Part shown: positions 39,247 to 62,489 of the stretch, piece after piece | Position numbering within the stretch: the stretch's first letter is position 1 | Layout of the letters: every line of letters starts with the position of its first letter | NCBI GenBank assembly: GCA_963806875.1 | Contig: CAWDYU010000001.1 | Location: 783,508 to 847,507 of the forward strand | From: an uncultured Gemmatimonadales bacterium | Lineage (GTDB): Bacteria; Gemmatimonadota; Gemmatimonadetes; Gemmatimonadales; GWC2-71-9 | DNA length: 64,000 bases | Direction of reading: 5' to 3' | Made by a program: the position numbers and the translations under genes | Notes under the pieces: model-generated | The model's input: only the letters and a program-made list of their open reading frames with translations | Database searches by the model: none | What the model was told of the DNA's origin: nothing

Positions 39247-40079
39247 ATGATCGACCTCCACTGTCACTCGACGGCATCGGATGGGATGCTCTCGCCCGCC
39301 GACGTGGTCCGGCATGCCGCCGAGGTGGGCGTGGCAACGCTCGCCCTCACCGATCACGACACCACCGCCGGCGTGGCCGAGGCAATCGAGACTGGCCGCC
39401 GGTCGGCGTCAACGTGATCAGCGCGTGCGAGTTCTCGGTGCAGGTGCGGTGGGGCGAGATGCACCTGCTCGGCTACTTCCTTCCGGTGAGCGATGCGCGC
39501 CTCGAGGACTTCCTGGTGCACGCCCGTGCTGGGCGCGACCGGCGCGCTCGCGCGATGGTGTCGCGCCTCACCGGACTCGGCCTGCGCATCGACTTCGACA
39601 GCATCCAGCATATCGCCCAGGGAGGCGCGGTCGGGCGGCCGCACGTCGCTCGCGCGCTGCTCGCGGCCGGTCACGTCGCAACGATACAACAGGCTTTCGA
39701 CCGATACATCGGGACAGGCCGACCAGCATTCGTGGAAAAGGAACTGCCGCAGTTTCGCGATGTCGCAGATCTCGTGCACAGTGTCGGCGGGATCGTGTCG
39801 GCGGCGCACCTCAAGCGCCATGGCACCCGTACCGAGCTTGCGCTGTTGTGCGATGAAGGCCTCGACGCGGTCGAGACCCGCCACCCCAGTCACGACGGGG
39901 AGACTCGCGCCACGATCACCGAGGCGGCCGACGCGCTCGGCCTGGGCCGCACCGGGGGGTCCGACTGGCACGGCGAGCTCGATGCGATCGGCACGCACTC
40001 CCGACTCGGGTCGCAGGACGTGCCCGACGAATGGCTGCCGCCCCTCGAGCAGCGCCGACCGGCGATCAACCCGGCATGA
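39247..40079 (+). pseudogene. PHP-domain metal-dependent phosphoesterase, one frame change
   Basis: MIDLHCHSTASDGMLSPADVV...LALTDHDT (PHP motifs) continues in another frame from about 39403 (GVNVISACEF...GEMHLLGYF...VSAAHL...GGSDWHG). Confidence 0.75.
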
Positions 40080-40819
40080 GCATCGAACTCGCGGGGCGCG
40101 TGGCCCTCGTGACCGGCGGTGCCCGTCGGCTCGGCCGCGCCTTTGCGGTCGCGCTGGCGGAGCGGGGGATGCACGTCGCGGTGCACTACGGCAGCTCGGC
40201 CGGAGAGGCCCAGGAGTTGGTGGCGGAACTCGAGGCGGCGGGTCATCGCGCGGCGTCGTTCGGTGCCGACCTCACCGACGCCGATGCAGCGTGCGCCCTC
40301 CCCGGTCGCGGTGGTCGACCTGTTCGGACGGCTCGACGTGCTGGTCAACTCGGCAGCGGTGATGGAACGCATCAGCGTGGCCGACACGACCGCGAAGCAG
40401 TGGGATGAGATCATGCACCTCAATCTCCGCGCGCCGTTCTTGCTGGCGCAGCAAGCGGCACCCTACATCGCGCAACAGAAGGGCCGGATCGTCAACATCG
40501 CCGACCTCGGCGGCCTGGAGCCCTGGCCATCGTACGCCGCACACTCGGTCAGCAAGGCTGGTGTGGTGATGCTCACCAAGGTGCTCGCCACTGCGCTTGC
40601 ACCCGACATCACGGTCAACGCCATTGCGCCCGGGCACGGTGCTGGTGCCCGACGATTACGACGATGCCCGCCGCACCTTTCTCAGCGAGACCACGCCCGT
40701 TGCAGCGCCTCGGCACGCCCGGTGACGCGGTGCAGGCGCTGCTCTTCCTGCTCGAACACGGCGATTTCATCACCGGTGAGACCCTCGTGGTCGACGGCGG
40801 CAGGATGCTGCGGCGGTGA
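40076..40819 (+). pseudogene. Short-chain dehydrogenase/reductase (SDR), about 3 frame changes
   Basis: VALVTGGARRLGRAFAVALAERG (TGxxxxxG), NSAAV, and the YAAHSVSKAG catalytic Y-x3-K. The C-terminus ...ITGETLVVDGGRMLRR is recovered only after shifts near 40298, 40633 and 40699. The start overlaps the PHP stop (ATGA). Confidence 0.75.
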
Positions 40820-41551
40820 TCTCGTTGGGTGAGGTGGTGATCATCGGCGGTGGTTGCTACGGATCGTTCTACACCGGCCAGCTCGAACGCGCCCGCGCCG
40901 ACGGCGCAGTCGAGTATCATCGCCTGGTCGTGGTCGACCGCAATGCCGCGTGCCAGGTGGCATCGCAGGAAGCCGTCGCCGGGCGCGATCTCGTCGTGTC
41001 CGACTGGGATGCGTTCCTCGATGCATGGCTCGACCGCGTCCGTGCGTCGCACCGGCGACGCTCCCGACATGATCGTTCCCTCGCCATTGATGCCCCACCT
41101 CATGGCCAACTGGATCATGCGCCGCGCGCGCGAGCAATGGCCGGAACACGGCGTGCGCACGGTGCCGGCGGCCGCGCCACTCGGGACGTCGTTCGACATG
41201 CTCCACGGCGACGGGACCCGGTATGTGTCGTTCGCCGATTGGCTCTGCCCGACGCACTGCATCGAGCCGGGGCTTTGCCCTGCCACGCGCGCGCCGCGCA
41301 CCTGGGAAATGGGTGAGGCGGTCGCACGGTGGACCCTGGAGCGTGCGGGAGAGCGACCCACCGCCGGGCCGGCACTCTTCACCTGTCGCCACGTGGTGCA
41401 CGGGGTCGGGATGTACCCTGCAGCCGGTGCCTTCGAGGGCTTCGACGCACTGGTGGCGCAGGTCGCAGCCACCGGCACGGCCGATCTCGTGGTGGGCTCA
41501 GTGTCGGCGTGTCACGGAGCCATCGGGTTGATTCGTGTGGGTGATGGATGA
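40816..41551 (+). pseudogene. Hypothetical protein with an N-terminal GxGxxG fold and a Cys-rich motif, one frame change
   Basis: The GTG overlaps the SDR stop (GTGA). VVIIGGGCYGSFY..., then after a shift near 41060 ...FADWLCPTHCIEPGLCPATRAPRTWEMG...FTCRHVVHG...SACHG. No family recognised. Confidence 0.5.
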
Positions 41552-45217: not shown

Positions 45218-46639
45218 ATGACGTTTCGCACCGAAAAGGACCCCCTGGGCGACAAGCAGGTTCCTGCCAGCGCCCTCTACGGCATCCAGACGCTTCGGGC
45301 CGCCGAGAACTTCCCCATTTCGGGGCTGATGCCGCTGCCTGGGTTTGTCGATGCGGTGGTCATGATCAAGCGGTCGGCCGCTGAGACGCACCGCGAGACC
45401 GGGCGGATCGAGGCGGAGCATGCGGCGGCGATCATCGCGGCCGCTGATGAGGTGCTCGGTGGTCAGCATCGCGACCAGTTCATCGTCGATCCGTACCAGG
45501 CGGGCGCGGGCACGTCGCACAACATGAACTGCAACGAGGTGCTCGCGAACCGGTCCAACGAGATCCTGGGCTTCGACCGCGGCACCTATTCGCCGATCCA
45601 CCCGAACGATCACGTCAACATGGCGCAATCGACCAACGACGTGATCCCCACCGCGATGCGGCTCGCCACGCTGCTGGTACTGCCGAAGTTGCTCGACGCG
45701 ATGGACGGGTTCGCTGCGACATGCATGGCCAAGGGCGTCGAGTTCGACAACGTGATGAAGTCGGGTCGCACCCACCTGCAGGACGCCACGCCGATCCGGC
45801 TGGGTCAGGAGTTCTCGGCGTACGGTCGCACGGTGTCGCGCCATCGCGCCAAGCTGGAACAGGCGTCGAAGTGGCTCCTCCCGATGAATATCGGCGGCAG
45901 CGCGGTCGGCACCGGGCTCAATGTGGAGCCGGAATACCCCGCCCTGATGGTCAAGCATCTCCGCGCCATCACTGGCCTCGAGGTCGAGGTTGCCGAGGAC
46001 CGGATCCAGTTGATGCAGTCGATGGGCGACATCGCGACGTTCAGCGGCGCATTCCGGGCATTCGTTCTCGACCTCTGCAAGATCGCCGACGACATCCGGT
46101 TGCTCGCCTCGGGGCCGCGCACCGGTCTCGCCGAGATCGTGTTGCCGGCGGTGCAGCCGGGGTCGAGCATCATGCCGGGGAAGGTCAATCCGTCGATCGC
46201 CGAGATGGTCAACCAGGTCTGCTACCAGGCGATCGGGCTCGACACCACGGTGGCGATGGCGGCAAAGGCAGGCGAGCTGGAGCTCAACGTGATGATGCCG
46301 GTGATCACCCACAACATCGTCTTCGGCATCGAGATCGTCGCGAATGCCGTACGGGTCTTCGACGAGCGGTGCATCGCAGGGATCGAGGCCGACGCCGAGC
46401 AGTGTGCGTACTGGCTGGAGCGAAGCCCGGCGCTGGTGACGGCGCTGATGCCGAAGATCGGGTATGGCGAGGCAGCGAAGCTTTCGAAGGAAGCGTTGGC
46501 CACGGGCAAGACCGTCAAGCAGCTCGTCACCGACAAGAAGGTGCTCGAGGGTGCCGAACTCGATGAAGTGCTGAACTTGCGCGCGATGACCGAGATCGGC
46601 GTCCCCGGGGGCGGGAAGGGCGTCCCGCTGGGAGGCTGA
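45218..46639 (+). CDS. aspA: Aspartate ammonia-lyase (class II fumarase/aspartase family)
   Basis: MTFRTEKDPLGDKQVPASALYGIQTLRAAENFPISG and the GSSIMPGKVNP signature loop. The N-terminal pattern favours aspartase over fumarase. Confidence 0.8.
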   Translation: MTFRTEKDPLGDKQVPASALYGIQTLRAAENFPISGLMPLPGFVDAVVMIKRSAAETHRETGRIEAEHAAAIIAAADEVLGGQHRDQFIVDPYQAGAGTSHNMNCNEVLANRSNEILGFDRGTYSPIHPNDHVNMAQSTNDVIPTAMRLATLLVLPKLLDAMDGFAATCMAKGVEFDNVMKSGRTHLQDATPIRLGQEFSAYGRTVSRHRAKLEQASKWLLPMNIGGSAVGTGLNVEPEYPALMVKHLRAITGLEVEVAEDRIQLMQSMGDIATFSGAFRAFVLDLCKIADDIRLLASGPRTGLAEIVLPAVQPGSSIMPGKVNPSIAEMVNQVCYQAIGLDTTVAMAAKAGELELNVMMPVITHNIVFGIEIVANAVRVFDERCIAGIEADAEQCAYWLERSPALVTALMPKIGYGEAAKLSKEALATGKTVKQLVTDKKVLEGAELDEVLNLRAMTEIGVPGGGKGVPLGG

Positions 46640-46641
46640 TC

Positions 46642-47819
46642 GTGCCGGCTGCGCGGTGGCGGCAGCTTGCGTTGCTTGCCGTCGCGCAGCTGCTGGCGAT
46701 GTCTGTCTGGTTTGCGGGGAGCGTTGCGCTCCCCGCCTTCCGTTCCGGCATCACGCTCACCGACTCACAAGTCGGCTGGCTCACGTCGGCAGTGCAGTTG
46801 GGGTTCGTTGCCGGCACGCTGATCGCTGCGGTGCTCAACCTTCCCGATATCTTGCCGGCCCGCTGGTATGTCGCGGCGTCGGCGTTGTGTGCTGCGTTGG
46901 CGAATGCCTCGCTGCTGATGGCCGACGGATTTGCCCCCGCGGTGGCGTCGCGCATACTCACTGGCGTGGCGCTCGCCGGCGTGTATCCGCCGGCGATGAA
47001 GATGGCCTCGACCTGGTTCCGGGAGGGGCGTGGGCTCGCCATCGGTACCGTGGTCGGCGCGCTCACGGCGGGAAAGGCGTTGCCGTACCTGCTGAGTGGC
47101 GTTCATGTCTCGCTCGGCGCTGCGGTACTGGTGCCGTCGGGTGGCGCGCTGTTCGCGGCGCTGCTCGTTGCGGTGGCATATCGTGACGGGCCGCATGCGT
47201 TTCCGGCCCGGCCGTTCTCGTGGCAGCTCGCGGGGACGGTGGTGCGCGACCCCGCGCTGCGGCGCATCAGTGGCGGATACTTCGGGCATATGTGGGAGCT
47301 CTATGCCTTCTGGGCGTGGCTGCCGGCTTTTCTCGCTGCGTCCGCCGTGGCATCGGGGCAGGGCGAGGTCTCGAATGCTCTGGAGTTTCGGGTGCATCGC
47401 CATCGGTGCAGTGGGATGCGTGTGGGGTGGGTGGGCAGCCGACCGGGTGGGTCGACCGCGGGTGGTGCGTATGGCACTGGTGACGAGCGGTGCCTGCTGC
47501 CTGCTCAGTGCGGCGCTGTTCGGCGCACCGTTTGGCGTGGTGATCGCTGCTCTGCCTTGTCTGGGGTGTCGCGGTGATCGCCGATTCGGCACAGTTCTCG
47601 GCGCTGGTCACCGAGCACGCGCCGCCCCACGCCGTGGGCACGGCGCTCACGTTGCAGACGTCACTCGGGTTTCTGCTCACGATCGGGTCGATCCAGCTGT
47701 TGCCGGTGCTTGCCGGCGCGGTGGGGTGGCGCTGGACGATGATGGTGCTGGCGCTGGGTCCCGTGGCGGGGCTGTGCGCGGTGCGAGGGATGGGTGGCAG
47801 GGGGCTCACGAGTCGATGA
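46642..47819 (+). pseudogene. MFS transporter, 2 frame changes
   Basis: Twelve-helix-like hydrophobic pattern spread over three frames (46642 frame, 47096 frame, 47574 frame). Shifts are near 47385 and 47560. Confidence 0.65.
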
Positions 47820-47915
47820 CTCTGTGTGGCCCCGGACTGGCAGAACGTCCCGACTCATGCACGGCGAAGCGAAGCGTACCGAACACACCCACAATGGCAA
47901 CTGGAGTATGAACGC

Positions 47916-48233
47916 ATGCAGATTCAGGTCAACACCGACAGCAATGTCGAGGGAAGCGAAGGGCTCACTGAGCAGGTGGTAGCGGTGGTGAGAGCCGCCA
48001 TGGATCGTTTCGGTGAGCATATCACGCGCATCGAGGTGCATCTCAGCGACGAGAACAGCGACAAGAAGTCCGGTGCCGACGACAAGCGCTGCCTCCTGGA
48101 GGCTCGTCTTGCCGGGCTTCAGCCGATCTCGGTGTCGGAGGTGGCGGCGACCCTGGAGCAGGCGGTTGACGGCGCCGTCGACAAGCTGGCGCGTTCCATC
48201 GACTCCACGCTGGGGCGGTTGGAGACACGCTAG
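47916..48233 (+). CDS. HPF/RaiA-family ribosome-associated protein (short form)
   Basis: MQIQVNTDSNVEGSEGLTEQV...ITRIEVHLSDENSDKKSGADDKRCLLEARLAGLQP...LEQAVDGAVDKLARSIDSTLGRL matches the short HPF/RaiA-like family. GGAG lies 9 nt upstream. Confidence 0.75.
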   Translation: MQIQVNTDSNVEGSEGLTEQVVAVVRAAMDRFGEHITRIEVHLSDENSDKKSGADDKRCLLEARLAGLQPISVSEVAATLEQAVDGAVDKLARSIDSTLGRLETR

Positions 48234-50255: not shown

Positions 50256-51263
50256 TCAGCGAGGGCGATTGATCCCCAGGGCGACCAAGACGTCATCAAT
50301 GGCCACCGCTGCGTACCGGCCCTGTGGAACGGCTCGCACCGCCCTTGCGCGCACAACTCCGATCACCTCGGCGCGATCATTGAGCAACGGGCCGCCGCGG
50401 TCGAGCGCCCCGACGGTCACGGTGGTCTGCACGACCCGAATTACTTCCGATGTACTCACGGACGCGACGACTCCCCGCGAGAGGGTTTGCGGATGGCTGA
50501 GCGCCGATCCGATACCGAACACCCTCTGTCCGGGGACAACCGTGGTGATCGACCCCATTCGCAATGGCACCAGCGAATCCAGCGAGACCTTGAGCAACAC
50601 CACGCCCACCATGGTATCCGACGCCTGCACCACCGCGCCGCTTCGCCGACCATCGGCGGTCTTGACGATGATCGCGGTCGATCCGCGCACGACATCGTAA
50701 TTCGTGAGGATCAGCCCGCTCGCCAGCACGACGAATCCACTGCCTTGCGCGTTGTCAGTCTCGATCTGCACGACCGATGGCGCGGCGATCGCGGTGACGG
50801 CTCGCACGCTCAGCGGAGTCGCTGACCTCGGTTGCAGGTCGCGGGGAAGAACCAGCGGGGGCGATGGGTCCGGCTTGAGGTAACGAATTGCAATGCCGGT
50901 GGCAGACGCGGCCGGGATGGTCATGGAACCGGTCAATGACGCGCCCTTGAACTCCGATGTCTCCCGGATGATGACGGCGTCGGCGCCCAGCGCGCGGGCC
51001 TGCGCCTGCAGCATCGGCACCAGGTCGGCGAGCTGCACGGTGTTGAACGCCGTGGCAGCGCGCTTCTGTGCCGAGACCATGCCGACTTCTTCAAAGGGAT
51101 GGTCGACCTTCTGTTCGGCGAGGTAGATGTCGATCGGGGCCGCGTCGGGCCTTGCGGCGAGCGTCTTGCTCCCGGTGCGAACACTCTGTTGAGTCGTCGC
51201 CGCACAACCGCACAGCCCAAGGACCAGGATCAGTATGGCGCCCCTCTGATGCAATGCACGCAT
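50256..51263 (-). CDS. Lipoprotein with a trypsin-like (S1C/HtrA-type) fold lacking all three catalytic residues (pseudoprotease)
   Basis: LVLGLCGC lipobox. The C-terminal half aligns to HtrA-type proteases, but TNxHVV is TNYDVV (H->D), D[IL]A[VL][IL] is GVVLL (D->G), and GNSGGPL is LDRGGPL (S->R). Confidence 0.7.
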   Translation of the reverse strand: MRALHQRGAILILVLGLCGCAATTQQSVRTGSKTLAARPDAAPIDIYLAEQKVDHPFEEVGMVSAQKRAATAFNTVQLADLVPMLQAQARALGADAVIIRETSEFKGASLTGSMTIPAASATGIAIRYLKPDPSPPLVLPRDLQPRSATPLSVRAVTAIAAPSVVQIETDNAQGSGFVVLASGLILTNYDVVRGSTAIIVKTADGRRSGAVVQASDTMVGVVLLKVSLDSLVPLRMGSITTVVPGQRVFGIGSALSHPQTLSRGVVASVSTSEVIRVVQTTVTVGALDRGGPLLNDRAEVIGVVRARAVRAVPQGRYAAVAIDDVLVALGINRPR

Positions 51264-51321: not shown

Positions 51322-53028
51322 CTACCCCTGCACGGTTGCTCGCGTCACCCGCCAGCTTCCGTTTGCGCCCTGGCTCAGCTGCAACGTGAACCGCGCAGTC
51401 TTGCGCTTCGATGACCCGAATGCCGAGCGCACCTCGACCTCACTCGAGACCGTGGCGGTGGCCTCCGAGCCGTTGACGTTCACCGACGGTGTGCCCGGCG
51501 CCCCCAGCACCAGACGCTTCTCGCGCAGCATTCGGTCGGCTGGCTGGCCATCGACCGAACCGGTGAGACCGGCGCCGTCGCCTCGGCGGAACCAGTCTCG
51601 TACTGCTGTCGCGACTTCGCGCTCCGAGTCCGCGGCGGAGTTGCGCGATGTGCCACCGTCCGACCCGCCGACCGGAGAAGGCGTGTCGGGCTTCTTCTCG
51701 GGCGCTGGCGCTGGCGTGGGCGGTGGTGCAGGTGCCGGTGCCGGTGCCGGTGTCTGCCGGCTGGGCGGAGTTTTCCGCACCGGGTCCGGCTGCCGGATGA
51801 CCTCCGGCGGTGGCGCAACCCCACTGCCTCCCACGGGCGCAGCCGGCCGCGACTGTGCGCCCGGCCCGAGCACCGGAGGTGGAATGGGGCGCGCCGACAC
51901 GGTCGGCCCGATCTCTGTCGATGGCGGCCCTTCGCTCGGAACTGCCGGCGTGTCGGTACCGCCGCTGCGCAGCACCACGCCAACGGCGAGTGCCAGCATC
52001 GCGACCGTCGACCACGTGCGCCAGTCGGTCCAGAGCCCGCCACTTGTACCACCACTCGACGACCCGGCCGCGGTCGTGTATACCGGCGCCGTTGTCGCGA
52101 CCGGAGCCGTCGCTGCGCTTCCGTCGTGCGGCGTCGCATGACGCGGCGTCGAGGCGATCCGGGTCGCGGGGGCAGGCCCGCGCGCCGCGTGTGTCTCGGT
52201 GACGACGCTCGCGGCCGCTTCCATCAGTGCATTCCGCATCGCCGCCGCCGTGGCGTATCGGTCTCCCGGCAGCTTCGACATCGCCCGGAGCACCGTGCGG
52301 TCGACCACCGCCGGCAACTCCGGGTTGCTCTCGCTCGGCGCCATCGGCGGCTCGTTCAGCTGCCGCATCATCAGCTTGTAGTCGCTGTCGGCCTCGAACG
52401 CGACCTTGCCGGTCACCAGTTCGTAGAACACGGCGCCGAGCGCGTAGAGATCGGTACGACCGTCGCACTCCTCGCCGCGCAATTGCTCCGGTGCCATGTA
52501 GGCTGGCGTGCCGACCGAGTGTCCGTGCCGGGTTTGCCTGCTGCTTCCTGCCATCCTGGCGATGCCGAAGTCCATCACCTTGGTCGCATCGCCCGGCCCG
52601 ATCATGATGTTCGCCGGCTTGATGTCGCGATGCACCACGCCATGATCGTGGGCATGGTCCAGCGCCTCGGCGACCTGTGCGCAGATCCCCGCTGCACGCC
52701 GCCAGCTCACCCGTCCGGTTCGGGCAACGAGATCCTCCAGCGTCTCTCCACGGAGGAACTCCATCACCATGTAGAACTCATCGCCGTCCCGCTCGAGCCC
52801 GTAGAGCGTTGCGATCCGCGGATGCGCCAGGCGCGCCAGCGCAATCGCCTCGGTGCGGAACCGTTCGACCAGTGCGGTCTGCCGGACGAGATCGGGGCGG
52901 AGGACCTTGATGGCGACGTCGCGGTCGAGCATCTCATCGCGGGCGCGATAGACCGTGCCCATCCCGCCCTCACCCAACCGGTCGACAATCTGGTACTTGC
53001 CGAGGGTGGTGCCACGGCGGTCGCTCAC
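51322..53028 (-). CDS. Ser/Thr protein kinase with a TM helix, Pro-rich periplasmic linker and a small C-terminal domain
   Basis: GEGGMGTVY, VAIKVL, HRDIKPANIM, DFGIA and APE motifs. TM helix WSTVAMLALAVGVVL and a PAPAPAPAPPPTPAPAP linker. The start overlaps the upstream stop (ATGA). Confidence 0.85.
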   Translation of the reverse strand: MSDRRGTTLGKYQIVDRLGEGGMGTVYRARDEMLDRDVAIKVLRPDLVRQTALVERFRTEAIALARLAHPRIATLYGLERDGDEFYMVMEFLRGETLEDLVARTGRVSWRRAAGICAQVAEALDHAHDHGVVHRDIKPANIMIGPGDATKVMDFGIARMAGSSRQTRHGHSVGTPAYMAPEQLRGEECDGRTDLYALGAVFYELVTGKVAFEADSDYKLMMRQLNEPPMAPSESNPELPAVVDRTVLRAMSKLPGDRYATAAAMRNALMEAAASVVTETHAARGPAPATRIASTPRHATPHDGSAATAPVATTAPVYTTAAGSSSGGTSGGLWTDWRTWSTVAMLALAVGVVLRSGGTDTPAVPSEGPPSTEIGPTVSARPIPPPVLGPGAQSRPAAPVGGSGVAPPPEVIRQPDPVRKTPPSRQTPAPAPAPAPPPTPAPAPEKKPDTPSPVGGSDGGTSRNSAADSEREVATAVRDWFRRGDGAGLTGSVDGQPADRMLREKRLVLGAPGTPSVNVNGSEATATVSSEVEVRSAFGSSKRKTARFTLQLSQGANGSWRVTRATVQG

Positions 53029-55206
53029 GACATCACCGGCGAGGCCTGGGTGATACTGACCGCTTCGGGGCCCGACATCGGCACCCCGAGGATCACCACG
53101 CTCACGTTGTCGGGGGCGCCGGCCTCGCGGGTTACCCTGACCAGTTCGTTGCAGGCGAGGTGTGGGGGCATCGAGTCGACCACCCGAAGGATCTCGGCCT
53201 CGGGGATGACATCATGCAACCCGTCGGACGAGAGCAGGAGTCGGTCGCCGGGGCGGATCACGAACGGTCGCGCCCAGGTCGCGACGTCGACGTCGGGGTG
53301 ACTGCCGAGTGCACGGGAAATCACGTTCTTGTCGGGATGCTCGCGCGCCTCATCGCGGGAGATGCTGCCCTCCCTCACCAGTTCCATGACGGCGCTGTGG
53401 TCCTCTGTCATCACGAAGATCTCGTTGGCGCGGATGAGGTAGCAGCGTGAGTCGCCGACATGGGCGCACCACGCGAGTCCGCCGCGCAACACGATGGCAG
53501 TGCACGTTGTGCCCATGCCGCGGAGCGCGGTGTTGCCGGCGGCAGTGTCGTAGATCTCGCGGTTGGCGCGCCGCACCGCACGTGCGAGGATCTCACCAGG
53601 GTCGCCGGTCTCCTGATATCGCTCGGCGACGGCGTCGGCGGCAATCCGGCTCGCCTGCTCGCCGCCGGCATGGCCGCCCATGCCATCGCACACCATGGCG
53701 AGCAACGCACCGTTTTCGTCGGGCGGCCGCACCACGCGCACGGTGTCCTCGTTGTTGGTGCGCTGGCAGCCCGGATCACTCGCCGTTCCTATCACCACCC
53801 GTGATTCGACACCGAGGGCATCGCCGTGAAATGCCGGACGATCGACGGTCTCCTGCGCGCGTCGCGCGGCTGATGCCTTGCGCCCCCATGGAACCCCGAA
53901 CCATGCAAAGCCGAGGAGCAGGGGCAGCAGCGGTCCGCCGTTCGAGTGCGGCCGACCACCGCTCGGCCGCAGCACGAACGAGTATTCGGAGCGTCCCTCG
54001 GTCACGTTGAAGCGCACGTCCTCGTCACGGTAACCGCTGCGCCGCAGGATCAGGTGTACTTCTGCGCCCAACGCCATCTGCAGGCGATAGGGTGTCTCTC
54101 CCACCTGCTGTCCGTCCTGCCAGACGGTGGCGGTGCCATTGATCGTGTTCACGGTGACGTTGCGCACCCGCCCAGGGGGTGTGAGGGTGGCGGGTGGTGC
54201 GGAGTCACGAACGATGCTGACAGCCATGGAATCGGCCGGGCCAGCGGGATTGCGAGACCAGAGGCCACTGAACGCGAACACGAGTGCCATTGCCGCAACG
54301 CTGCCTGCCGCCAGCAGCGGCGCGTGGCGGCTTGCCCTGGCGGCGAGTTCCGGCATGCTGACCGGTCCTGGGGCACGCTCGCCAGTGCGGATTCGCTCGA
54401 GGTCGCTGCGCAGCGTATCGAACGATCCATACCGGGCCCGCGGGTCGACCTTGAGGCATCTGCTCGACCACGGCGTCGACGAAACGCGGCAAGCCTGGGT
54501 TCGATACTGTCGGTGCCGGATAGCGGGCGGTACGGATCCGCTGGGTGATGTCCTCCACCCCTGCGGCTGCAAACGGGTGCCGCGCCGTGAGCATCTCGTA
54601 GAAGAGGACACCGAGCGCCCAGATCTCGCTCTGCATGTCGGCTGGCGCGCCCATGAGTTGTTCGGGAGCCATCGATTGCAGCGTCCCGATGACGCTTCCA
54701 TCGGCGGTGAGGGCGGGAGAATCGGGTCCCTTGGCAATCCCGAAGTCGAGCAGTTTCACTTCGCCCGACCGGGTGATCTTCACATTGCTCGACTTGATGT
54801 CCCGGTGCACCGTGCCCCGCTTGTGTAGGTAGTCGATGGCTTCCACCAGGCCCTGCATGCTGTCAACCGCTCGTGCCAGCGGCATCGGACCATGGGAGGC
54901 GAGCCACGATTCGATGGTCTTGCCATCGACGAACTCCAGCACGATCGCCGGTGTCCCGTCATGCGAAGCAAAGGCGATCATCCTGGCGATTCCGGGGTGC
55001 GCGAGAGACGAATGGATTCGCGCCTCGTTGGCGAAGCGTGCGCGAAGCGATTCCGATCCGCGCACCGCCGTGAGGATCTTCACGGCAACTTCCTGCCCCG
55101 ACTGCCGATCCACGCCGCGATAGACCTCCCCCATGCCACCGGCGCCGATGAACTCGACGAGATGCCAACTCCCGAACTGGACGTGCAGCCAGGTGCCGGT
55201 GGTCAT
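53025..55206 (-). pseudogene. Apparent single-polypeptide fusion: Ser/Thr kinase - TM - PEGA-like domain - TM - PP2C phosphatase, one frame change
   Basis: The kinase motifs (GAGGMGEVY, VAVKIL, HRDIKSSNV, DFGIAK, APE) end at ...FVDAVVEQM. An extra C near 54456 shifts the frame to LKVDPRARYGSFDTLRSDL. The sequence then runs without a stop through TM1 (LLAAGSVAAMALVFAFSGLW), a PEGA-like domain (VNTINGTATVWQDGQQVGETPY...GYRDEDVRFNV), TM2 (LLPLLLGFAWFGVPW) and a PP2C domain (NEDT, MVCDGMGGHAGGEQAS, SSDGLHD, DNVSVV). Confidence 0.7.
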
Positions 55207-55220
55207 GAGTCTTCCTCTGG

Positions 55221-56969
55221 TCAGTTCGAGTTGGGTGCGACCGACATCAACTCCATCCCGTAGCGAATCGGGAGGGAGAACGAGATCTGCACGTCGCCAG
55301 TCTTGCCGGCGAAGAAGATGCCGATCACCCGTCCGAATGCATCGAACATCGGACCGCCGCTATTGCCGCCGCCGGTCGAGTTGATGGTCAGCTGATAGGT
55401 GTCACCGCTGGAGTACTCCTGCATCGACTGGGTGGTCGGGCCGTCGGCAGCGCGCAGGATCTTGCCGATGTTGCCGACTGACACGGTCGGGTCGGGGACG
55501 ACTCGCTGCTGCGCATCACGGTTGAAGAGATCCCGTGAACGGAGGACCGCGACGACATAGTCGGATACCGACGGATACCCCATGACGGTGACCTGATCTC
55601 CGACCTTGGTTTCGTCGTATGAGTCGTACAGCTCGACCTTGGGGAGCGTGGAGGGCGCCGAGACCTTGATGAGCGCCACGTCGTGCTGGTCGCTGACTCG
55701 CTGGGTCGCAGCCTCGAGCGGAGTGGTGTTCTTGCGGAAGCGAACCATCACGTATTCCTGCCGGCCGCGGAAAACATCGAACTCGTTCTTCGGCCCGGTC
55801 TGCTTCGTCTCCGACGGGATCCAGCGGGTTGGCGGGCGCGTGAGGATGGGCTGTCCCTGCTGGTCGAACGCGACCTGCCCTCCCTGCATGACCACCCCCA
55901 CCGCGTTCGGGTCGAAGCCGTAGGGCGCGCGCCAGTTGGCGGCAACGTGGCGGTTGGTGAGGATGAAGCCGTCATTGGTCACCACAAACCCCGAACCACT
56001 TCCCGTCACGGCGATCGGCGCTCCGCTTGCAGCGTCGAGGGTGAGGGCCGGTTCGATGGCGCCGTCATCCAGCCGGACGTAGGCCGGCACCATGTCGCCG
56101 GCACCCTGCATCAGCGTGATCACACGCTTCTGGCCGTTGACCTGGACTTGCAGCTGGTTTGGCACGTAGCGGTGGAAGACCTGGGCACCGGTCGGGGCGT
56201 AGATGAGGTTCCAGGAGAAGTCCACCTGTACCACTGCGCCGGAGTTTTTCTCGGCGACCTCGGCCGGAGTCTGCATCGTGCCCAGCGCCTGCGCCCGCTC
56301 TCCTGCCTTGCCGATCGAGTCGGTACGCGCCGCGAGCAGCGCTGCCTGTCGCTTCGCTTCTTCGCCGCTGCTGTCGGCGTTCGACTTGAGGTACGCTCCG
56401 CCGGCCACGGCGAGTAGCACGACGGCGGCCACGGCCATCATCGTGGTGCGCTTTCCCTCATTGCGGGTCTCGCCGATCATCCGCTCCACCGTGGCCTTGC
56501 CGACGCTGCCGGCGGGCCGCGCTGCAGGCACGGTCTCGCCCACCGCGACACCGGCGGTGCGCGTCTCACCCGCAGTGCTCGCTGCTGCGGGCGCTGCGAG
56601 CCCGCCCAGGCGGGTGGCCTTCACGTATGCGGCGGGAAGTGGGTCGATCTCGAATCCGATCTCGGGTCCACCAGCGCCGAGCTGGATGATGTCGCCCGGT
56701 GCGAGTGGCACACTGCCGGAGATCCGGACCTTGTTGAGGAAGGTGCCGTTGCGGCTGTTGAGGTCGGTGAGGGAGAAACGGATGGGATCCTTCGGGTCCC
56801 GCACGATTCGGGCGTGCTGGCGACCGACGAGATCGTCCTTGTCGGCGTCGAACCGGACCTGGGCGATCGGGTCGCGCCCGAGGGTGAGTTCCGAGACGTC
56901 AGCGAGAGGGAATTCCTCGACCGACCCGGCTTTCGATCCCTTCATATGACGCAGGATCACACGTTCCAT
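55221..56969 (-). CDS. FHA domain - TM - trypsin-like serine protease (S1C) fusion protein
   Basis: N-terminal FHA domain (LTLGRD...VGRQHARI...LTDLNSRNGTFLN), TM helix (MMAVAAVVLLAVAGGAYL), and a periplasmic protease domain with an intact triad (TNRHVA, HDVALIKV, GGNSGGPMF). Confidence 0.85.
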   Translation of the reverse strand: MERVILRHMKGSKAGSVEEFPLADVSELTLGRDPIAQVRFDADKDDLVGRQHARIVRDPKDPIRFSLTDLNSRNGTFLNKVRISGSVPLAPGDIIQLGAGGPEIGFEIDPLPAAYVKATRLGGLAAPAAASTAGETRTAGVAVGETVPAARPAGSVGKATVERMIGETRNEGKRTTMMAVAAVVLLAVAGGAYLKSNADSSGEEAKRQAALLAARTDSIGKAGERAQALGTMQTPAEVAEKNSGAVVQVDFSWNLIYAPTGAQVFHRYVPNQLQVQVNGQKRVITLMQGAGDMVPAYVRLDDGAIEPALTLDAASGAPIAVTGSGSGFVVTNDGFILTNRHVAANWRAPYGFDPNAVGVVMQGGQVAFDQQGQPILTRPPTRWIPSETKQTGPKNEFDVFRGRQEYVMVRFRKNTTPLEAATQRVSDQHDVALIKVSAPSTLPKVELYDSYDETKVGDQVTVMGYPSVSDYVVAVLRSRDLFNRDAQQRVVPDPTVSVGNIGKILRAADGPTTQSMQEYSSGDTYQLTINSTGGGNSGGPMFDAFGRVIGIFFAGKTGDVQISFSLPIRYGMELMSVAPNSN

Positions 56970-57055: not shown

Positions 57056-59332
57056 TCACGGTTTCGCCCCGCTGGTCTCCGGCGCATCGCGCCACCTGGC
57101 CTCGTCGGCCGGCCGACCCCACGCGCGGTACAGGGCGGCGAGCCGTTGCCGCGCCTCACGCGCCGGCTGGCTCGTGGCGCCGCGCACCTCGGCCAGTCGC
57201 CGCTCGGCGGGGAGGAGCAGGCGCTCCGCTTCGGGGTAGCTGCCTCGCTTGATCAGCGTCGCAGCGAGAACGCTACGACTCGATGACAACAACCAATGCT
57301 CCGCCGGAAACACCGCCTCGCGCAGTGCCAGGCTCTCGCGTAGCCAACGCTCGGCCACCTCGAGCGAATCGAGCTCGGCGAGCGCTCGCCCGAGGACCTG
57401 CATGCCGGTGGAGACCGCCGGGTGACTGTCGTCGAGTGTGCGGCCACGCAGTGCCAGCACCCGTCGCGCCCACACTGCCGCGTCGGCCGGGCGCCCCGAG
57501 CTGAGGAGCAGGTCGGCATAGCTGAACATCGTCCAGGCGTAATCCGGATGCTCCGCTCCGAGCAGGATCTTCCGCACCCGGAGCACTTCGCGGTAAGCCG
57601 AATCGGCGGCCTCCGGCCGGCCCATGCGTTCGAGGATGGTAGCGTAGGCGTTGAGGGTCGAGGCGTGCAGCGGGTGAATGTCGTCGAACGCCTCGGCTTC
57701 GAGTGCCAGCGCAGCGCGAAAATGGGCATCAGCCGAATCGGTCTCACCGGCCTCGCCAAAAACCGCTGCGAGGTTGTGGTGCGCGTACGCGAGCGCCGAA
57801 TCGTTGTCGGGCTCGAGTCGCCGCTGCATGGCGAGCGCCTCCACGAGAAAGGGCACCGCACCTTTTGCGTCGCCGAGCCGGCTCCGGAGTCGGCCGCGGT
57901 GGTCGAGGAATGCCACACCAGTGGGCGTCTCGGCGTCGGCGCCGGCGCCGAGCAGGTCGATCGCCACGGCAAGCACGGAGTCGGCGCGTTCGAGTTCGCC
58001 GTCGAGTTCGAGCGCCGTGCTGAGGTTGGCCAGCGCCGCTGCCAGGCGTTCATGATCCGGCGGGTCGAGGCGTCGCGCCGCGTCCACCGCTCGATGGGAC
58101 TGGTCGATCGCGAGCGCGAACTCGCCGAGTGTCAGGTAGGTGTTGGAGAGGACGTGACGAACCCGCACTTCGAGGTCGGGTTGATCTTTCAGGGAATCGG
58201 CGCGCAGTGCCGCGGTGTCGAGCACCTCACGCATCGTGATGTCGCGGCCGAGCTGACCCGGGTCCGGCGCCGCAAGCATCGATGTGAAGAACGCAGTCAC
58301 CGCCGTTGCCTGCTCGCGCTCGTGCACGGCACGAGTGGCCTGACGACGCGTGGCGACGACGCCCCAGCTGAGCGAACCGAGCACGAGAACGCGCGGCAAC
58401 GAGTTCAAGCCGACGCCGACGAATGAACTTCGTCAGGCGATAGCCGGCTCTATCGGGACGGGCAGCAACCGGAAGTCCATCGAGATGCCGCTCGATATCG
58501 TCGGCGAAGCGCGCCACGGTACCGTAGCGACGGTCGGGATCTTTCCGGAGTGCCATCAGCATGATGGCGTCGAGATCGCCGCGCAGCCGCCGTGCACCTG
58601 CGACAGTGCTGGGACGGGGGGAGCTTCGTGGCAGACGATCGCCTCGATCTCCGTCCGCATCCTGCCATGGAGGTCGAACGGGCGACGTCCGGTCAACAGC
58701 TCGTAGAGGATCACGCCGAGCGCATAGACATCGGTCGCAGGGCTGGCGGGGAGCCCGCGCAGCTGCTCCGGCGCGGCATACTCGGGTGTCAGCCCCGGTT
58801 GATCGCCTTGCGTGAGCGGCAGCTGGCCGCTTCCCTCGTCCTCCCGAAGGAGCCGGGCGATCCCGAAGTCGAGCAGCTTGACCGTACCAGCCTCGGTCAC
58901 GAGGATGTTGCCAGGCTTGAGGTCGCGGTGCACGACCAGCTGCTGGTGGGCATGCTGTACCGCAGCGGTGACCTGGAGAAAGAGTACCAGCCGTTGGCGA
59001 AGCGTCAGCTTGCGCGCGTCGGCCCAGGTGGTGAGTGGCGCTCCGTCGACATACTCCATGGCGAAGTACGGCTGGCCGTCGACCGTGATCCCGCCGTCGA
59101 TCAGCGCGGCAATGTTGGGATGGTCGAGGGCGGCGAGAATCGTTCGCTCGTAACGGAACCGCCTGACTGCGAGATCACCCTCGGCGCTCGCCCGCATGAG
59201 CTTGATCGCCACGCGATGCTCGAACTCGGTGTCTGCGCGTGCAGCCTCGTACACCGACCCCATCCCACCGGTACCGATCTGTCGCACCAACTGATATGGG
59301 CCGATCCGCATGTTGAGGGCGGGATCGTTCAT
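57056..59332 (-). pseudogene. Ser/Thr protein kinase - TM - TPR repeat protein (downstream paralog), 2 frame changes
   Basis: MNDPALNMRIGPYQLVRQIGTGGMGSVYEA..HRDLKPGNILV..DFGIA. Shifts lie near 58590 and 58400. The rest is collinear with the intact paralog at 59332-61803 (RRLRGDLDAIMLMALRKDPDRRY..., AVTAFFTSMLAAPDPGQLGRDITMREVLD..., TPR repeats). The ATG overlaps the upstream stop (TGATG). Confidence 0.75.
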
Positions 59333-61803
59333 CAGGGCACCTTTGCCGGCAGGAGTGCCGCCCAGCGGGCGGCCTGGGCTGGTTTCTGCCACGCGGTATA
59401 GAGGCGCACCAGTCGCGTGTGGGCATCGGTCATCGGCTGCGAGCTCGGTTCCCGGTCGGCAGCCAGCGCGGTCTCGCTCCGCAGCAGCAGTCGCTCGGCC
59501 TCGACGTATCGACCGACACCGGTATAGAAATCACCGAGGATTCCTTCGCTGCTGGCGATGAGCCAGTGGTGCGCCGGCAAGGAGGCGCGACGGAGCGCGA
59601 GACTTTCCTTCAGGTACCGCTCAGCCGCAACAGTCGAGTCGAGATGACTGAGCGAGATGCCCAGTGCCTGCATTGCGGTGGCGATCGCCGGATGCGCGTC
59701 GGGCAAGGTCCTGCCACGGAGGGCCAGCACCTCGCGCGCGCGACCGGCCGCGCGGCTGTACTGCTTCATTCGAGCCAGGAACTGTGCCGACTGGAAGAGC
59801 GCCCAGGCGTAGTCGGGATGCTCGGCTCCGAGGAGGCGTCGCTGCATTGCGAGCGCCGCCTCAGAGACGGAATCAGCCCGGTCGAGGTGCCCGTTGAGTT
59901 CGAGCGAGTACGCGTACTGTGCCATGGCGTTGGCGACCAGCGGATGCTCGGCGCCGTGCGCCCGGCGTGCGGCCGCGACCGATTGGGCGTGCAACGTTTC
60001 GCCCTCGGCGAAGCGGCCCAGTTGGGTGATGACTTGCCCGAGATTGTTGTACGAGAAGAGCAGCAGGGAGTCGTTGTCGGGGGCTACGCGCGCCCGGAAC
60101 TCGAGCGCCTCGCGGTAGAGTTGTGCCGACGCCGGGAGGTCGCCCGCTGCGTCGCGCAGTCGTGCCCGCGAATCGAGGATGCTCGCGCGGGAGAGATCAT
60201 CGGGGGCTGCGTGCCGCTGCACCATCGGATCCGCGATCCGCATCACGGAGTCTGCCTCGGGATAGGCTCCCGTGAACTCGTAGATCCCGCTCACCTTCGA
60301 GAGCAGCGTGCCGGTGGCCAGGTCGCCGTTGGGCGACAGCATGCGCCGCAGTACCACCGCCCGGCTGTACTGCGCCGCGGCGGCTTCGTACTCGCCGAGA
60401 CCGCGATAGGTGTCACCGATCACCTCGCGTATCTCGGCGGCAAGGTCCGGTCGCTCGTCGAGTGAGTCCGCCCGGATTGCGGCGGTGTCGAGCACCTCGC
60501 GCATCGTCACCGAGCGACCGAGCCTGGCCGGGTCGGGGGCGGCAAGCATGGTGGTGAAGAATTCGGTGACAGCCGTGGAGCGATCACGCTGGAGTTCGGC
60601 GGCGCGCGCCTGCCGTGTGCTGAAGACCATCCCACCGACCGACGAACACAGCAGCAGCACCGCGGCGATCGACTCGACGGGGTGGCGTCGAAGGAGCCTG
60701 CGGGTCCGATATCCCCATCCCTCGGGGCGGGCGTGGACCGGGCGCCTGTCGAGCAGCGCCTCGACATCCTGGGCCATCTCATCGACCGATCCGTAGCGAC
60801 GTTCTGCCTCCTTGCGGAGCGCGACAAGAATGATCGCATCGAGGTCGCCGGAGATCCGGCGTCGAAGGGCGGGCGCCGACCGTGCTGCCAGCTTGCGCCA
60901 GCGATCGGGACCGAGCGCTTCGCTGGGCCTGGGCGGCGGTGTGGTACAGACGATCTGCTCGATCTCGGCGATAAGCTTGCCCTGCAAACCAAACGGGCGT
61001 CGGCCGGCGACCAGTTCGAAGAGGAGAACACCGAGCGCGTAGACGTCGGAGGCCACACCGACAGGAAGTCCGCGCACCTGTTCCGGGGAGGCATACTCGG
61101 GCGTGAAGATCCGGGCACCGCCCTGCGTCGCCGGAAGTTGATCGGTCCCCTCTGATACCCGCAGCAGTTTCGCGATTCCGAAGTCGAGGAGCTTCACCGT
61201 GCCCTCGTCGGTCACCAGGATGTTTGCCGGCTTGAGGTCACGGTGGACGACGAGTTGCTGGTGGGCGTGCTGCACCGCCCGGCAGACCTGCAGGAAGACG
61301 AGGAGCCGTCCACGAAGCGGCAGCGTCCTTTCGTCACACCATTCGGTGATCGGGCGACCCTGCACGTACTCCATCACGAAGTAGGGCTGGCCGTCGTCGG
61401 TCACGCCGCCATCGATGAGTGCTCCGATGTGGGGATGACTCAGGTTGGCCAGGATCTGCCGTTCGTAGCGGAATCGCCGAATGGCGAGATCACTCTCGAC
61501 GCCCCGCTGCAGGAACTTGATCGCCACGCGCCGGTCGAATCCCGGGTCGGCGCGGATGCCTTCGTACACGATGCCCATCCCGCCGACACCGATCTGCCGG
61601 ATGACACGGTACGATCCGACCTCCGTCCCCGACCGGTCACTCCGGTCGGCCAGCGTGAACCCCGGTTCCCGGGAGATACGGGTCTGCAGCGTGGCGCCGG
61701 TCTGCCGGTGCGCAGTGAGCAGGGCGCGCACCTCGTGACGCAGCGCCGCGTCGTCGGGGGAAGCGGCCTCCAGGAACGCGTCGAGGTCGGGCGGGTTGCT
61801 CAT
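59332..61803 (-). CDS. Ser/Thr protein kinase - TM - TPR repeat protein with an N-terminal extension (ECF-sigma-associated type)
   Basis: Start taken at MSNPPDLDAFLEAASPDDAALRHEVRALL. Kinase motifs (GVGGMGIVYEG, VAIKFL, HRDLKPANILV, DFGIAK), TM helix (IAAVLLLCSSVGGMVF) and a long TPR region. Confidence 0.85.
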   Translation of the reverse strand: MSNPPDLDAFLEAASPDDAALRHEVRALLTAHRQTGATLQTRISREPGFTLADRSDRSGTEVGSYRVIRQIGVGGMGIVYEGIRADPGFDRRVAIKFLQRGVESDLAIRRFRYERQILANLSHPHIGALIDGGVTDDGQPYFVMEYVQGRPITEWCDERTLPLRGRLLVFLQVCRAVQHAHQQLVVHRDLKPANILVTDEGTVKLLDFGIAKLLRVSEGTDQLPATQGGARIFTPEYASPEQVRGLPVGVASDVYALGVLLFELVAGRRPFGLQGKLIAEIEQIVCTTPPPRPSEALGPDRWRKLAARSAPALRRRISGDLDAIILVALRKEAERRYGSVDEMAQDVEALLDRRPVHARPEGWGYRTRRLLRRHPVESIAAVLLLCSSVGGMVFSTRQARAAELQRDRSTAVTEFFTTMLAAPDPARLGRSVTMREVLDTAAIRADSLDERPDLAAEIREVIGDTYRGLGEYEAAAAQYSRAVVLRRMLSPNGDLATGTLLSKVSGIYEFTGAYPEADSVMRIADPMVQRHAAPDDLSRASILDSRARLRDAAGDLPASAQLYREALEFRARVAPDNDSLLLFSYNNLGQVITQLGRFAEGETLHAQSVAAARRAHGAEHPLVANAMAQYAYSLELNGHLDRADSVSEAALAMQRRLLGAEHPDYAWALFQSAQFLARMKQYSRAAGRAREVLALRGRTLPDAHPAIATAMQALGISLSHLDSTVAAERYLKESLALRRASLPAHHWLIASSEGILGDFYTGVGRYVEAERLLLRSETALAADREPSSQPMTDAHTRLVRLYTAWQKPAQAARWAALLPAKVP

Positions 61804-61909
61804 CGAGCGCCTGTTCGAACAGCCCCTTGATGCGCGCCAGGCGAGTCGGCGTCCAGTCTGGAGTCTGGACCATGTCAGGACACGCGGCGTTGTTGGCTGA
61901 AGTCGCTCA

Positions 61910-62489
61910 TCAGTGCGCGGGCGAGGCGCCGCCCATGGCGTGCAGCAGGAAGGCCCGGGCGAAGGTCCAGTCACGCTTCACGGTGGCGGGGGAGATCTCC
62001 AGCGCCTCGGCGGTCTCGTCGATCGAGAGCCCGCCGAAGAAGCGGAGCTCCACCACTCGGCCCTGGCGCGGATCCAGCGCCTCGAGGCGCTCGAGGGCGT
62101 CGTTGAGGGCGAGCACATCGAGTTCGCGGTCGCAGGCATCTCCGATGGACTCGTCGAGGGTGACCCGGATCCCATGGTCGCGCTTGATGGTCCGGCGCTT
62201 GCGCGCCTGGTCGATCAGGATCCGGCGGATCGCCTGGGAGGCGATGCCATAGAACTGCGACCGGTTCTGCCAGTTGGCGTTCCGCTGGCCGACCGTCCGC
62301 ATGAACGCCTCATGGACCAGTTCGGTCGGCTGCAGGGTGTGGCCGGCCGATTCCCGCTGCATCGCGAAGGTGGCCAGCTTGTGAAGCTCGGCGTAGACCA
62401 GTGGCGCGAGCTGCATCTGCGGCGGCCGCGTTGCCGGCGCTCAGGTCTGCGAGCAGCCGGGTGACCTCGTGTTCGGGCGCGTCGGGCAT
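61910..62489 (-). pseudogene. ECF-type RNA polymerase sigma factor (TIGR02999 / kinase-associated ECF43-like), one frame change
   Basis: MPDAPEHEVTRLLADLSAGNAAAADA in one frame, then LAPLVYAELHKLATFAMQRESAGHTLQPTELVHEAFMR...RVVELRFFGGLSIDETAEALEISPATVKRDW in another (shift near 62420). No anti-sigma gene is adjacent; the next gene is a Ser/Thr kinase. Confidence 0.75.

Follow-up and report, generated by a model that had tools for sequence, protein, structure and literature searches.

A predicted single-chain membrane kinase-phosphatase in Gemmatimonadota

A fused kinase and phosphatase gene

We analysed a 64,000-nucleotide stretch of DNA, hereafter the window, from an uncultured Gemmatimonadales bacterium (assembly GCA_963806875.1, contig CAWDYU010000001.1, positions 783,508 to 847,507 of the forward strand). 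We focused on a gene at 53025..55206 of the window predicted to join a Hanks-type Ser/Thr kinase and a PP2C phosphatase in one membrane protein. The gene lies on the minus strand, which corrects the initial annotation. As assembled, it is covered by two overlapping minus-strand open reading frames (ORFs). That at 54205..55206 encodes the kinase and then an out-of-frame tail. The other, at 53025..54737, reads ...CLKVDPRARYGSFDTLRSDL (CLKVDPRARY) and continues through a transmembrane segment (TM1), a beta domain, a hydrophobic segment and the PP2C domain. Removal of one extra base yields a protein of 726 amino acids (aa), followed by a stop. The initial annotation had proposed an ORF of about this length after a one-base correction, and deletion of position 54464 bears this out. 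In the corrected protein, the order is Hanks kinase, TM1, PEGA-like beta-sandwich, short hydrophobic segment, Arg/Lys cluster and PP2C.

The kinase domain comprises residues 15-265 (54411..55164, minus strand) and spans the frameshift. As assembled, kinase subdomain XI is out of frame. In the corrected frame only, the Pfam Pkinase profile matches over positions 2-258 of 263 (E = 9e-49; 166.6 bits against a cut-off of 31.7). Conservation was read from an alignment of 57 sequences: the corrected protein and the 56 homologues described below. The catalytic residues K43, E61, H134-R-D136, N141, D154-F-G, E182 and R258 are invariant; in order, they are the beta3 Lys, alphaC Glu, HRD, Asn, DFG, APE Glu and subdomain XI Arg. 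Of the activation-loop Thr residues, T167 is invariant as well, and at least 90% of members keep T175. PknB, PknA and StkP are the nearest solved structures (E ~1e-45). With a full-length match above the cut-off and all catalytic residues present, the complete Hanks kinase described initially holds up. The fused protein carries a Hanks-type Ser/Thr kinase that, judged by its residues, is predicted to be active. The segment LKVDPRARYGSFDTL, previously described as juxtamembrane, is instead kinase subdomain XI; it falls within the Pfam kinase match and holds the invariant R258.

The PP2C (PPM) phosphatase domain comprises residues 474-708 (53082..53786, minus strand). The Pfam profile PP2C_2 matches residues 483-671 (E = 1e-15; 58.4 bits against a cut-off of 24) and the Pfam profile PP2C gives E = 6e-11 (43 bits; cut-off 20.3). 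The NCBIfam model Stp1_PP2C_phos (Stp1/IreP), aligned over positions 2-231 of 232, scores just below its cut-off (226.6 bits against 230). The metal-binding residues D487, D507-G-M-G-G-H, D661-G and D699 belong to the xED, DGxGG, SDG and DN motifs and are invariant across the family, and tPphA, PstP, Stp1 and PppA are solved relatives. A complete PP2C domain had been recognised from the motifs NEDT, DGMGGH, SSDGLHD and DNVS. All four are present, and both Pfam PP2C profiles exceed threshold. By these measures, both catalytic domains are intact, conserved and covalently linked.

The frame break and uninterrupted homologues

The closest ortholog with a DNA sequence (L001:1624-3804; GCA_038258395.1) encodes 726 aa, the same length as the corrected protein, and shares 77% amino acid and 76% nucleotide identity with it. 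Global DNA alignment against this ortholog gave exactly one indel over 2182 nucleotides (nt). This indel, a single added base, falls at gene position ~743, within kinase subdomain XI. It corresponds to 54459..54465 of the minus-strand gene, any base of which is possible; the best candidate is plus-strand position 54464. Deleting this position gives a clean 726-aa ORF with the local reading AVVGRCLKVDP. At the junction, column 248 of the family alignment is G or A, R249 is found in 45 of 56 sequences and C250 and L251 are invariant (consensus G-R-C-L). The extra base is not within a homopolymer. It had been described as an extra C near 54456; a single extra base is correct, but the site is ~3-9 nt off and the identity of the base cannot be fixed.

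The frameshift sits inside the kinase domain, not between the kinase and PP2C halves. A second error, hiding a stop or start between the halves, had been feared. This fear was unfounded: there is no other indel relative to the ortholog, and sliding identity against three orthologs is continuous, with no local collapse hinting at a hidden pair of compensating indels. A stop and start between the halves are absent from the orthologs; they are present in more distant clusters of Bacteroidota and Rhodothermales, which represent the unfused state.

The region was suspected to be indel-prone and proved to be so, with at least seven further frame changes in three other conserved genes within ~20 kb. 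Frame plots of third-position GC content (GC3) and codon usage were too noisy at 67% GC. Hence, we used three-frame reading and Pfam searches of the suspect genes instead. A short-chain dehydrogenase gene (39900-40900, plus strand) occupies three frames, and at least three indels are needed to join its TGGxxxxG, YxxxK and C-terminal segments. Its Rossmann motif VTGGARRLG and C-terminal GETLVVDGG share a frame, NSAA...YAAHSVSK is in another and a short piece is in the third. A major facilitator superfamily (MFS) transporter gene (46600-47950, plus strand) has at least two frame changes. Here, the Pfam MFS_1 match in ORF 46642..47577 covers only profile positions 1-228 of 347, and the remaining helices are in the other two frames. 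The frame of a kinase-TPR gene (57056-59392, minus strand) shifts near 58.57-58.64 kb and is restored by a compensating change at ~58.39 kb, such that the segment ...LMALRKDPDRRYGTV... is in a different frame from its flanks. This gene is a paralog (49% identity) of an intact 880-aa gene at 59332..61974.

In total, at least eight indels fall in four otherwise well-preserved genes over ~20 kb, a pattern that fits consensus errors and does not fit decay. Given this, and the single indel relative to the ortholog, the frame break in the fused gene is almost certainly an assembly error. The same error accounts for the deposited gene call (P0007, from a 1.05-Mb contig), a 400-aa PP2C-only product that starts at an internal Met after TM1. 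The contig carries many indel errors, and this public call is a lesson for annotation. Programmed frameshifting was considered and rejected; no slippery site is present, the extra base is missing from the ortholog and unrelated genes nearby show breaks of the same kind.

A protein search recovered ~60 full-length homologues (711-812 aa) from NCBI, ENA, JGI and Logan assemblies, all with Pkinase and PP2C domains. The initial annotation had proposed a search for orthologs with the same uninterrupted architecture. We found 56 that are collinear with the fused protein (711-807 aa; 39-77% identity) and keep its domain order and the catalytic residues of both enzymes. Pkinase and PP2C Pfam matches occur in 57 of 57 family members. 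The named sources are Gemmatimonadaceae and Gemmatimonadales (n = 2). When 1.84 billion representatives were searched exhaustively with a profile, end-to-end matches in a single stretch comprised 8 representative clusters at 50% identity. Hence, the fusion family is small. These sequences show that kinase and PP2C are truly joined in one chain, and that the fusion is conserved in Gemmatimonadota. Fusions in reverse order were not seen: the multi-stretch matches checked among the best 150 representatives were tandem kinases rather than PP2C-kinase proteins. The representative search also returned P0184 (844 aa), a kinase-kinase-PP2C protein and another layout for a writer-eraser fusion. P0172 (475 aa; TM-PEGA-hydrophobic segment-PP2C, with no kinase) was considered as a natural split form and set aside; it starts with Leu in the juxtamembrane region and looks truncated.

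Predicted topology, gene cluster and origin

TM1 comprises residues 295-316 (54258..54323, minus strand; APLLAAGSVAAMALVFAFSGLW), with a hydropathy peak of 2.08 over 19 residues. The hydrophobic segment, ~17-23 residues long, is strong and conserved in all members, and AlphaFold models a helix at residues 287-313. The PEGA-like, or transthyretin-like, beta-sandwich follows at residues 347-410 (53976..54167, minus strand) and is predicted to be extracytoplasmic. The PEGA profile (PF08308) scores below its cut-off at residues 349-404 (17.4 bits against 20.8; E = 0.004). However, 19 of the 57 family members match PEGA at E <= 0.01 (best E = 1.4e-6). The beta domain is modelled confidently as seven strands (pLDDT >90 in the full model; 92.9 for the domain only). 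The Foldseek matches, to carboxypeptidase regulatory-like and transthyretin-like domains, were weak (best E = 0.018; TM ~0.5). Mean column identity in the domain is 56%, and T371 and P372 are invariant. TM1 and a beta-sandwich after it, as first described, are thus supported, the PEGA match being below threshold in this protein itself.

A second hydrophobic segment with a basic cluster is the proposed return pass (residues 424-450; 53856..53936, minus strand; GPLLPLLLGFAWFGVPWGRKASAARRA). It has 21 uncharged residues here, against a family median of 15, and contains many W, F, L, G and P residues. Between three and six K/R residues come right after it in nearly all members. K+R counts per 12 residues are 2.72 before and 1.33 after TM1, then 1.37 before and 4.18 after the second segment. 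The rise across the second segment is seen in 56 of 57 members. The stretch from this segment to PP2C varies in length among members and is predicted to be disordered. Some properties of the second segment weigh against a return pass. It is short, contains two or three prolines and is modelled by AlphaFold as a helix only at residues 433-437. In addition, pLDDT is <50 across residues 417-462.

Hence, of the TM2 proposed initially, the hydrophobic segment and Arg/Lys cluster are present, but the segment is short, Trp/Pro-rich and poorly modelled. The accompanying claim of an in-out-in topology fares similarly. It is favoured by TM1 in all members, by the charge bias and by the split relatives described below, in which the beta domain is attached to the kinase and PP2C is separate. 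Together, these make in-out-in the best reading of the topology. We keep it as a prediction because the second pass is short, proline-rich and not modelled as a helix.

The fused gene lies between two genes on the same strand. Upstream is a gene for an FHA-TM-trypsin-like serine protease (55221..56969, minus strand; 582 aa), with Pfam matches to FHA (E = 3e-16) and Trypsin_2 (E = 9e-18) and one TM segment. The FHA region weakly matches FhaB/FipA. The His, Asp and Ser motifs are intact; the FHA domain is predicted to be cytoplasmic and the trypsin-like domain periplasmic. Downstream is a gene for a second Ser/Thr kinase, STK2 (51322..53028, minus strand), a membrane protein of 568 aa (Pfam Pkinase E = 5e-53). 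The STK2 GTG start overlaps the TGA stop of the fused gene by 4 nt (GTGA). The same overlap and downstream kinase are found in L001, L082, L083 and L084, and gene order around the fused gene is alike in these four loci and the window, all from Gemmatimonadota. In three of these loci (the window, L082 and L083) the gene before the fused one encodes the protease (~575-590 aa). A long gene, cut by the contig end, stands in this place in L001 and L084.

Several further genes adjoin the cluster. Just downstream of STK2 (50256-51263, minus strand) is a second trypsin-like protease, HtrA-like, with the lipoprotein-type signal LGLCGC; no PDZ domain was detected in it. L084 likewise has a Trypsin_2 gene after STK2. 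At L082:1019-4183, beside the FHA-protease/fused-kinase cluster, an ECF sigma factor gene is directly upstream of a kinase-TPR gene. Kinase-TPR genes likewise adjoin the cluster in the window (57056-61974).

A genome-collection scan with the general motifs DGMGGH and GAGGMG identified split clusters with the same gene order. Among the matches listed, these are from Chitinophagaceae, Spirosomataceae, Cytophagales, other Bacteroidota and Rhodothermales; none of the matches listed was a Gemmatimonadota ortholog. We examined six of the listed split loci (L002, L003, L005, L006, L008 and L013). The upstream gene encodes ~560-640 aa and, where translated (L002, L003 and L008), reads as an FHA-TM-protease. 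Overall, FHA-TM-protease genes were located at 55221-56969 of the window (minus strand), L002:8258-9937, L003:6075-7841, L008:8247-9926, L082:4262-5983 and L083:4149-5915. Hence, in the listed loci of Gemmatimonadota, Bacteroidota and Rhodothermales, the protease is directly upstream of the kinase/PP2C/kinase genes.

The next gene, STK1, encodes a kinase-TM-beta domain protein ending just after the domain in four of the six split loci (L002, L003, L008 and L013). The upstream kinase of L005 and L006 is short, at ~300 aa, and no beta domain was seen in it. A separate PP2C of ~300-330 aa follows STK1, and STK2 is last. The PP2C start is 3 nt after the STK1 stop in L002, overlaps it by 1 nt in L008 and L013 and by 50 nt in L003, and is 26-70 nt downstream of the kinase in L005 and L006. 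In all six loci the separate PP2C has a short N-terminus without a long hydrophobic stretch. Most split PP2Cs open with an aromatic-plus-basic motif (MGWMNFFRKKNKK, MFWKRKKR, MNFLHKLFGRKQKK) resembling AWFGLPWRRRR of the fused family. This motif appears homologous to the end of the second hydrophobic segment in the fused family. It could serve the split proteins as a tag for the membrane interface or for kinase docking.

Because syntenic clusters encode STK1 and PP2C separately and side by side, the fused protein appears to have arisen by fusion of these neighbouring, presumably cognate, genes. The conserved cluster to which they belong runs FHA-TM-trypsin-like protease, STK1 (kinase-TM-beta domain), PP2C and STK2. 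The read-through segment between the fused genes seems to have become hydrophobic. The combination of an FHA-TM-protease with kinases points to a candidate signalling unit, read through phospho-Thr, with protease output (or protease input). We found no published description of this FHA-protease cluster. PADLOC gave generic kinase and protease domain matches only, and a defence-system reading was rejected on these grounds.

Proposed mechanism and relation to known systems

The probable reading of the locus is an intact Gemmatimonadota receptor kinase-phosphatase on a single polypeptide, with a frame break due to assembly error, an origin by neighbour-gene fusion and a tethering mechanism. In the proposed topology the kinase would reside in the cytoplasm and TM1 would take the chain out, so that the ~70-aa PEGA-like sandwich faces the periplasm. 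The short Trp/Pro-rich hydrophobic stretch, locked by the Arg cluster, would return the chain to the cytoplasm, where a flexible linker of ~30 residues would hold PP2C. The proposed mechanism is modelled on PknB/PstP, PrkC/PrpC and PpkA/PppA/Fha1: the kinase would autophosphorylate its activation-loop Thr residues (T167 and T175) and phosphorylate partners such as STK2. The tethered PP2C would reset the kinase and its substrates at the membrane, at a fixed 1:1 stoichiometry. Finally, the upstream membrane protease would read the phospho-Thr marks through its FHA domain. We favour the interpretation that the main effect of fusion is to keep writer and eraser together in a set ratio, with no obvious conformational switch.

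Two alternatives concern the gene and its topology. Were the +1 insertion real in the strain, the gene would be a true pseudogene, with its kinase truncated in subdomain XI and the downstream part untranslated or mis-started. The deposited assembly does contain the frameshift and a 400-aa PP2C-only call, and the insertion is outside any homopolymer. However, one base aside, the gene is collinear with its orthologs, has the same length as the closest (77% identity) and bears no other lesion. Moreover, the three conserved genes nearby need two or three frame changes each yet keep perfect motifs, as consensus errors would produce. We consider decay very unlikely. Still less probable, and barely credible in our view, is a periplasmic PP2C. 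This would arise if the second stretch did not span the membrane, or were an interfacial anchor. The shortness of the stretch, its prolines and its low AlphaFold confidence are in keeping with this, as is the similar motif of split-cluster PP2Cs, which is unable to span a membrane. Conversely, the Arg/Lys cluster directly after the stretch in 56 of 57 members fits the positive-inside rule. The fused family has also gained an uncharged extension of 10-20 residues that is absent from split PP2Cs, and the latter have no signal peptide. Furthermore, the substrates and Mn2+-dependent chemistry of such phosphatases (PstP, Stp1 and PrpC) are cytoplasmic.

A third alternative concerns coupling of the two activities. 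In the ligand-controlled bifunctional switch proposed initially, the PEGA-like domain would move both membrane segments and reciprocally toggle kinase and phosphatase, as in bifunctional histidine kinases. The two catalytic centres are intact, and every member has an outside domain predicted to be anchored in the membrane at either end. This domain is also well conserved, with the invariant T371 and P372 and the identity given above. A conserved beta domain between two membrane segments leaves room for real signalling, and this counts against simple tethering. Even so, the outside domain of split relatives belongs to the kinase alone, with PP2C a separate soluble protein. The stretch between the second segment and PP2C, being variable in length and predicted to be disordered (pLDDT <50), would be a poor lever. 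We saw no HAMP-like or coiled-coil transmitter. The switch is therefore an unlikely reading. A similarly doubtful variant is a Gemmatimonadota-specific, one-chain phospho-switch receptor that reciprocally gates kinase and PP2C, and forms an inside-out/outside-in unit with the FHA-anchored periplasmic protease. Because the outside domain is kinase-only in split relatives and the linker is disordered and variable in length, tethering is the more likely arrangement.

It had been stated that Hanks kinases and PP2Cs are normally separate bacterial proteins. The rule stands, but fusions already appear in surveys (PMC1262709, PMC12088040, PMC9239204). For Pseudomonas and Deinococcus, a 2005 survey listed PP2C-Pkinase fusions in which the phosphatase is the N-terminal part, and stated outright that they were uncharacterised (PMC1262709). 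Pkinase+PP2C fusions were reported in Campylobacterota in 2022 (PMC9239204) and, mainly in Pseudomonadota, in 2025 (PMC12088040). The surveys call such proteins putatively bifunctional, and report no biochemical study of a fused protein (PMC1262709, PMC12088040, PMC9239204). Like these, the Gemmatimonadota protein places Hanks kinase and PP2C domains on one polypeptide. In the Pseudomonas type PP2C is N-terminal and no intervening TM or extracytoplasmic module is described. By contrast, two membrane passes are needed for the order found here (kinase, TM1, PEGA-like domain, hydrophobic segment, PP2C). The clade also differs: Gemmatimonadota, against Pseudomonas, Deinococcus and Campylobacterota in the surveys. 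Our literature searches (PEGA with PP2C and kinase; Gemmatimonad with PP2C) found no description of the kinase-TM-PEGA-like-hydrophobic-PP2C architecture. Thus, the domain pair is known from earlier fusions and the arrangement is a different architecture.

Among unfused systems, PknB-PstP (M. tuberculosis), PrkC-PrpC (B. subtilis), StkP-PhpP and Stk1-Stp1 are similar in genetically linking a phosphatase, encoded alongside, to a single-pass receptor kinase with an extracytoplasmic domain. Such pairs also supply the nearest solved structures of both halves, and the PP2C half comes close to the NCBIfam Stp1/IreP cut-off. However, these are separate proteins with a PASTA rather than PEGA-like sensor and no FHA-protease partner. 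PstP, unlike the fused PP2C, has its own C-terminal TM segment. The PpkA-PppA-Fha1 module of the P. aeruginosa type VI secretion system (T6SS), and FhaA/FhaB with PstP-PknA-PknB, also co-encode an FHA reader, Hanks writer and PP2C eraser; PppA is among the solved relatives of the fused PP2C. Here, by contrast, FHA is fused to a membrane-anchored trypsin-like protease, and writer and eraser share one chain. No T6SS or cell-division genes are adjacent to the fused-gene cluster.

The KKP prophage module resembles the cluster in being a three-gene unit with two Ser/Thr kinases, one PP2C and an FHA domain. Its genes measure ~0.9-1.3 kb, include CSD and FHA fusions and run in the order PP2C, kinase-CSD, kinase-FHA (PMC11341870). 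KKP acts as a toxin/antitoxin-like defence system, and membrane segments and a protease are outside its definition (PMC11341870). We rejected identity with KKP; the order here is FHA-protease, kinase-PP2C, kinase, and the proteins, of 568-726 aa, contain TM segments and lack a CSD, against soluble proteins of ~300-430 aa. EnvZ-type sensor histidine kinases are alike in concept only, as single membrane proteins that can both add and remove phosphate. Neither the folds nor the chemistry are related, and EnvZ has one DHp domain with two activities where the fused protein has two catalytic domains. EnvZ-like reciprocal control is only a proposal for the fused protein.

The protein is a natural Rosetta-stone fusion, which marks the kinase and PP2C as a cognate pair at the membrane. 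A second kinase and the FHA-anchored periplasmic protease are tied to this pair through a cluster common to Gemmatimonadota, Bacteroidota and Rhodothermales. The fused form would provide a defined 1:1 system for how phosphatases reset bacterial receptor kinases. It would also be suited to asking if one extracytoplasmic domain controls both activities.

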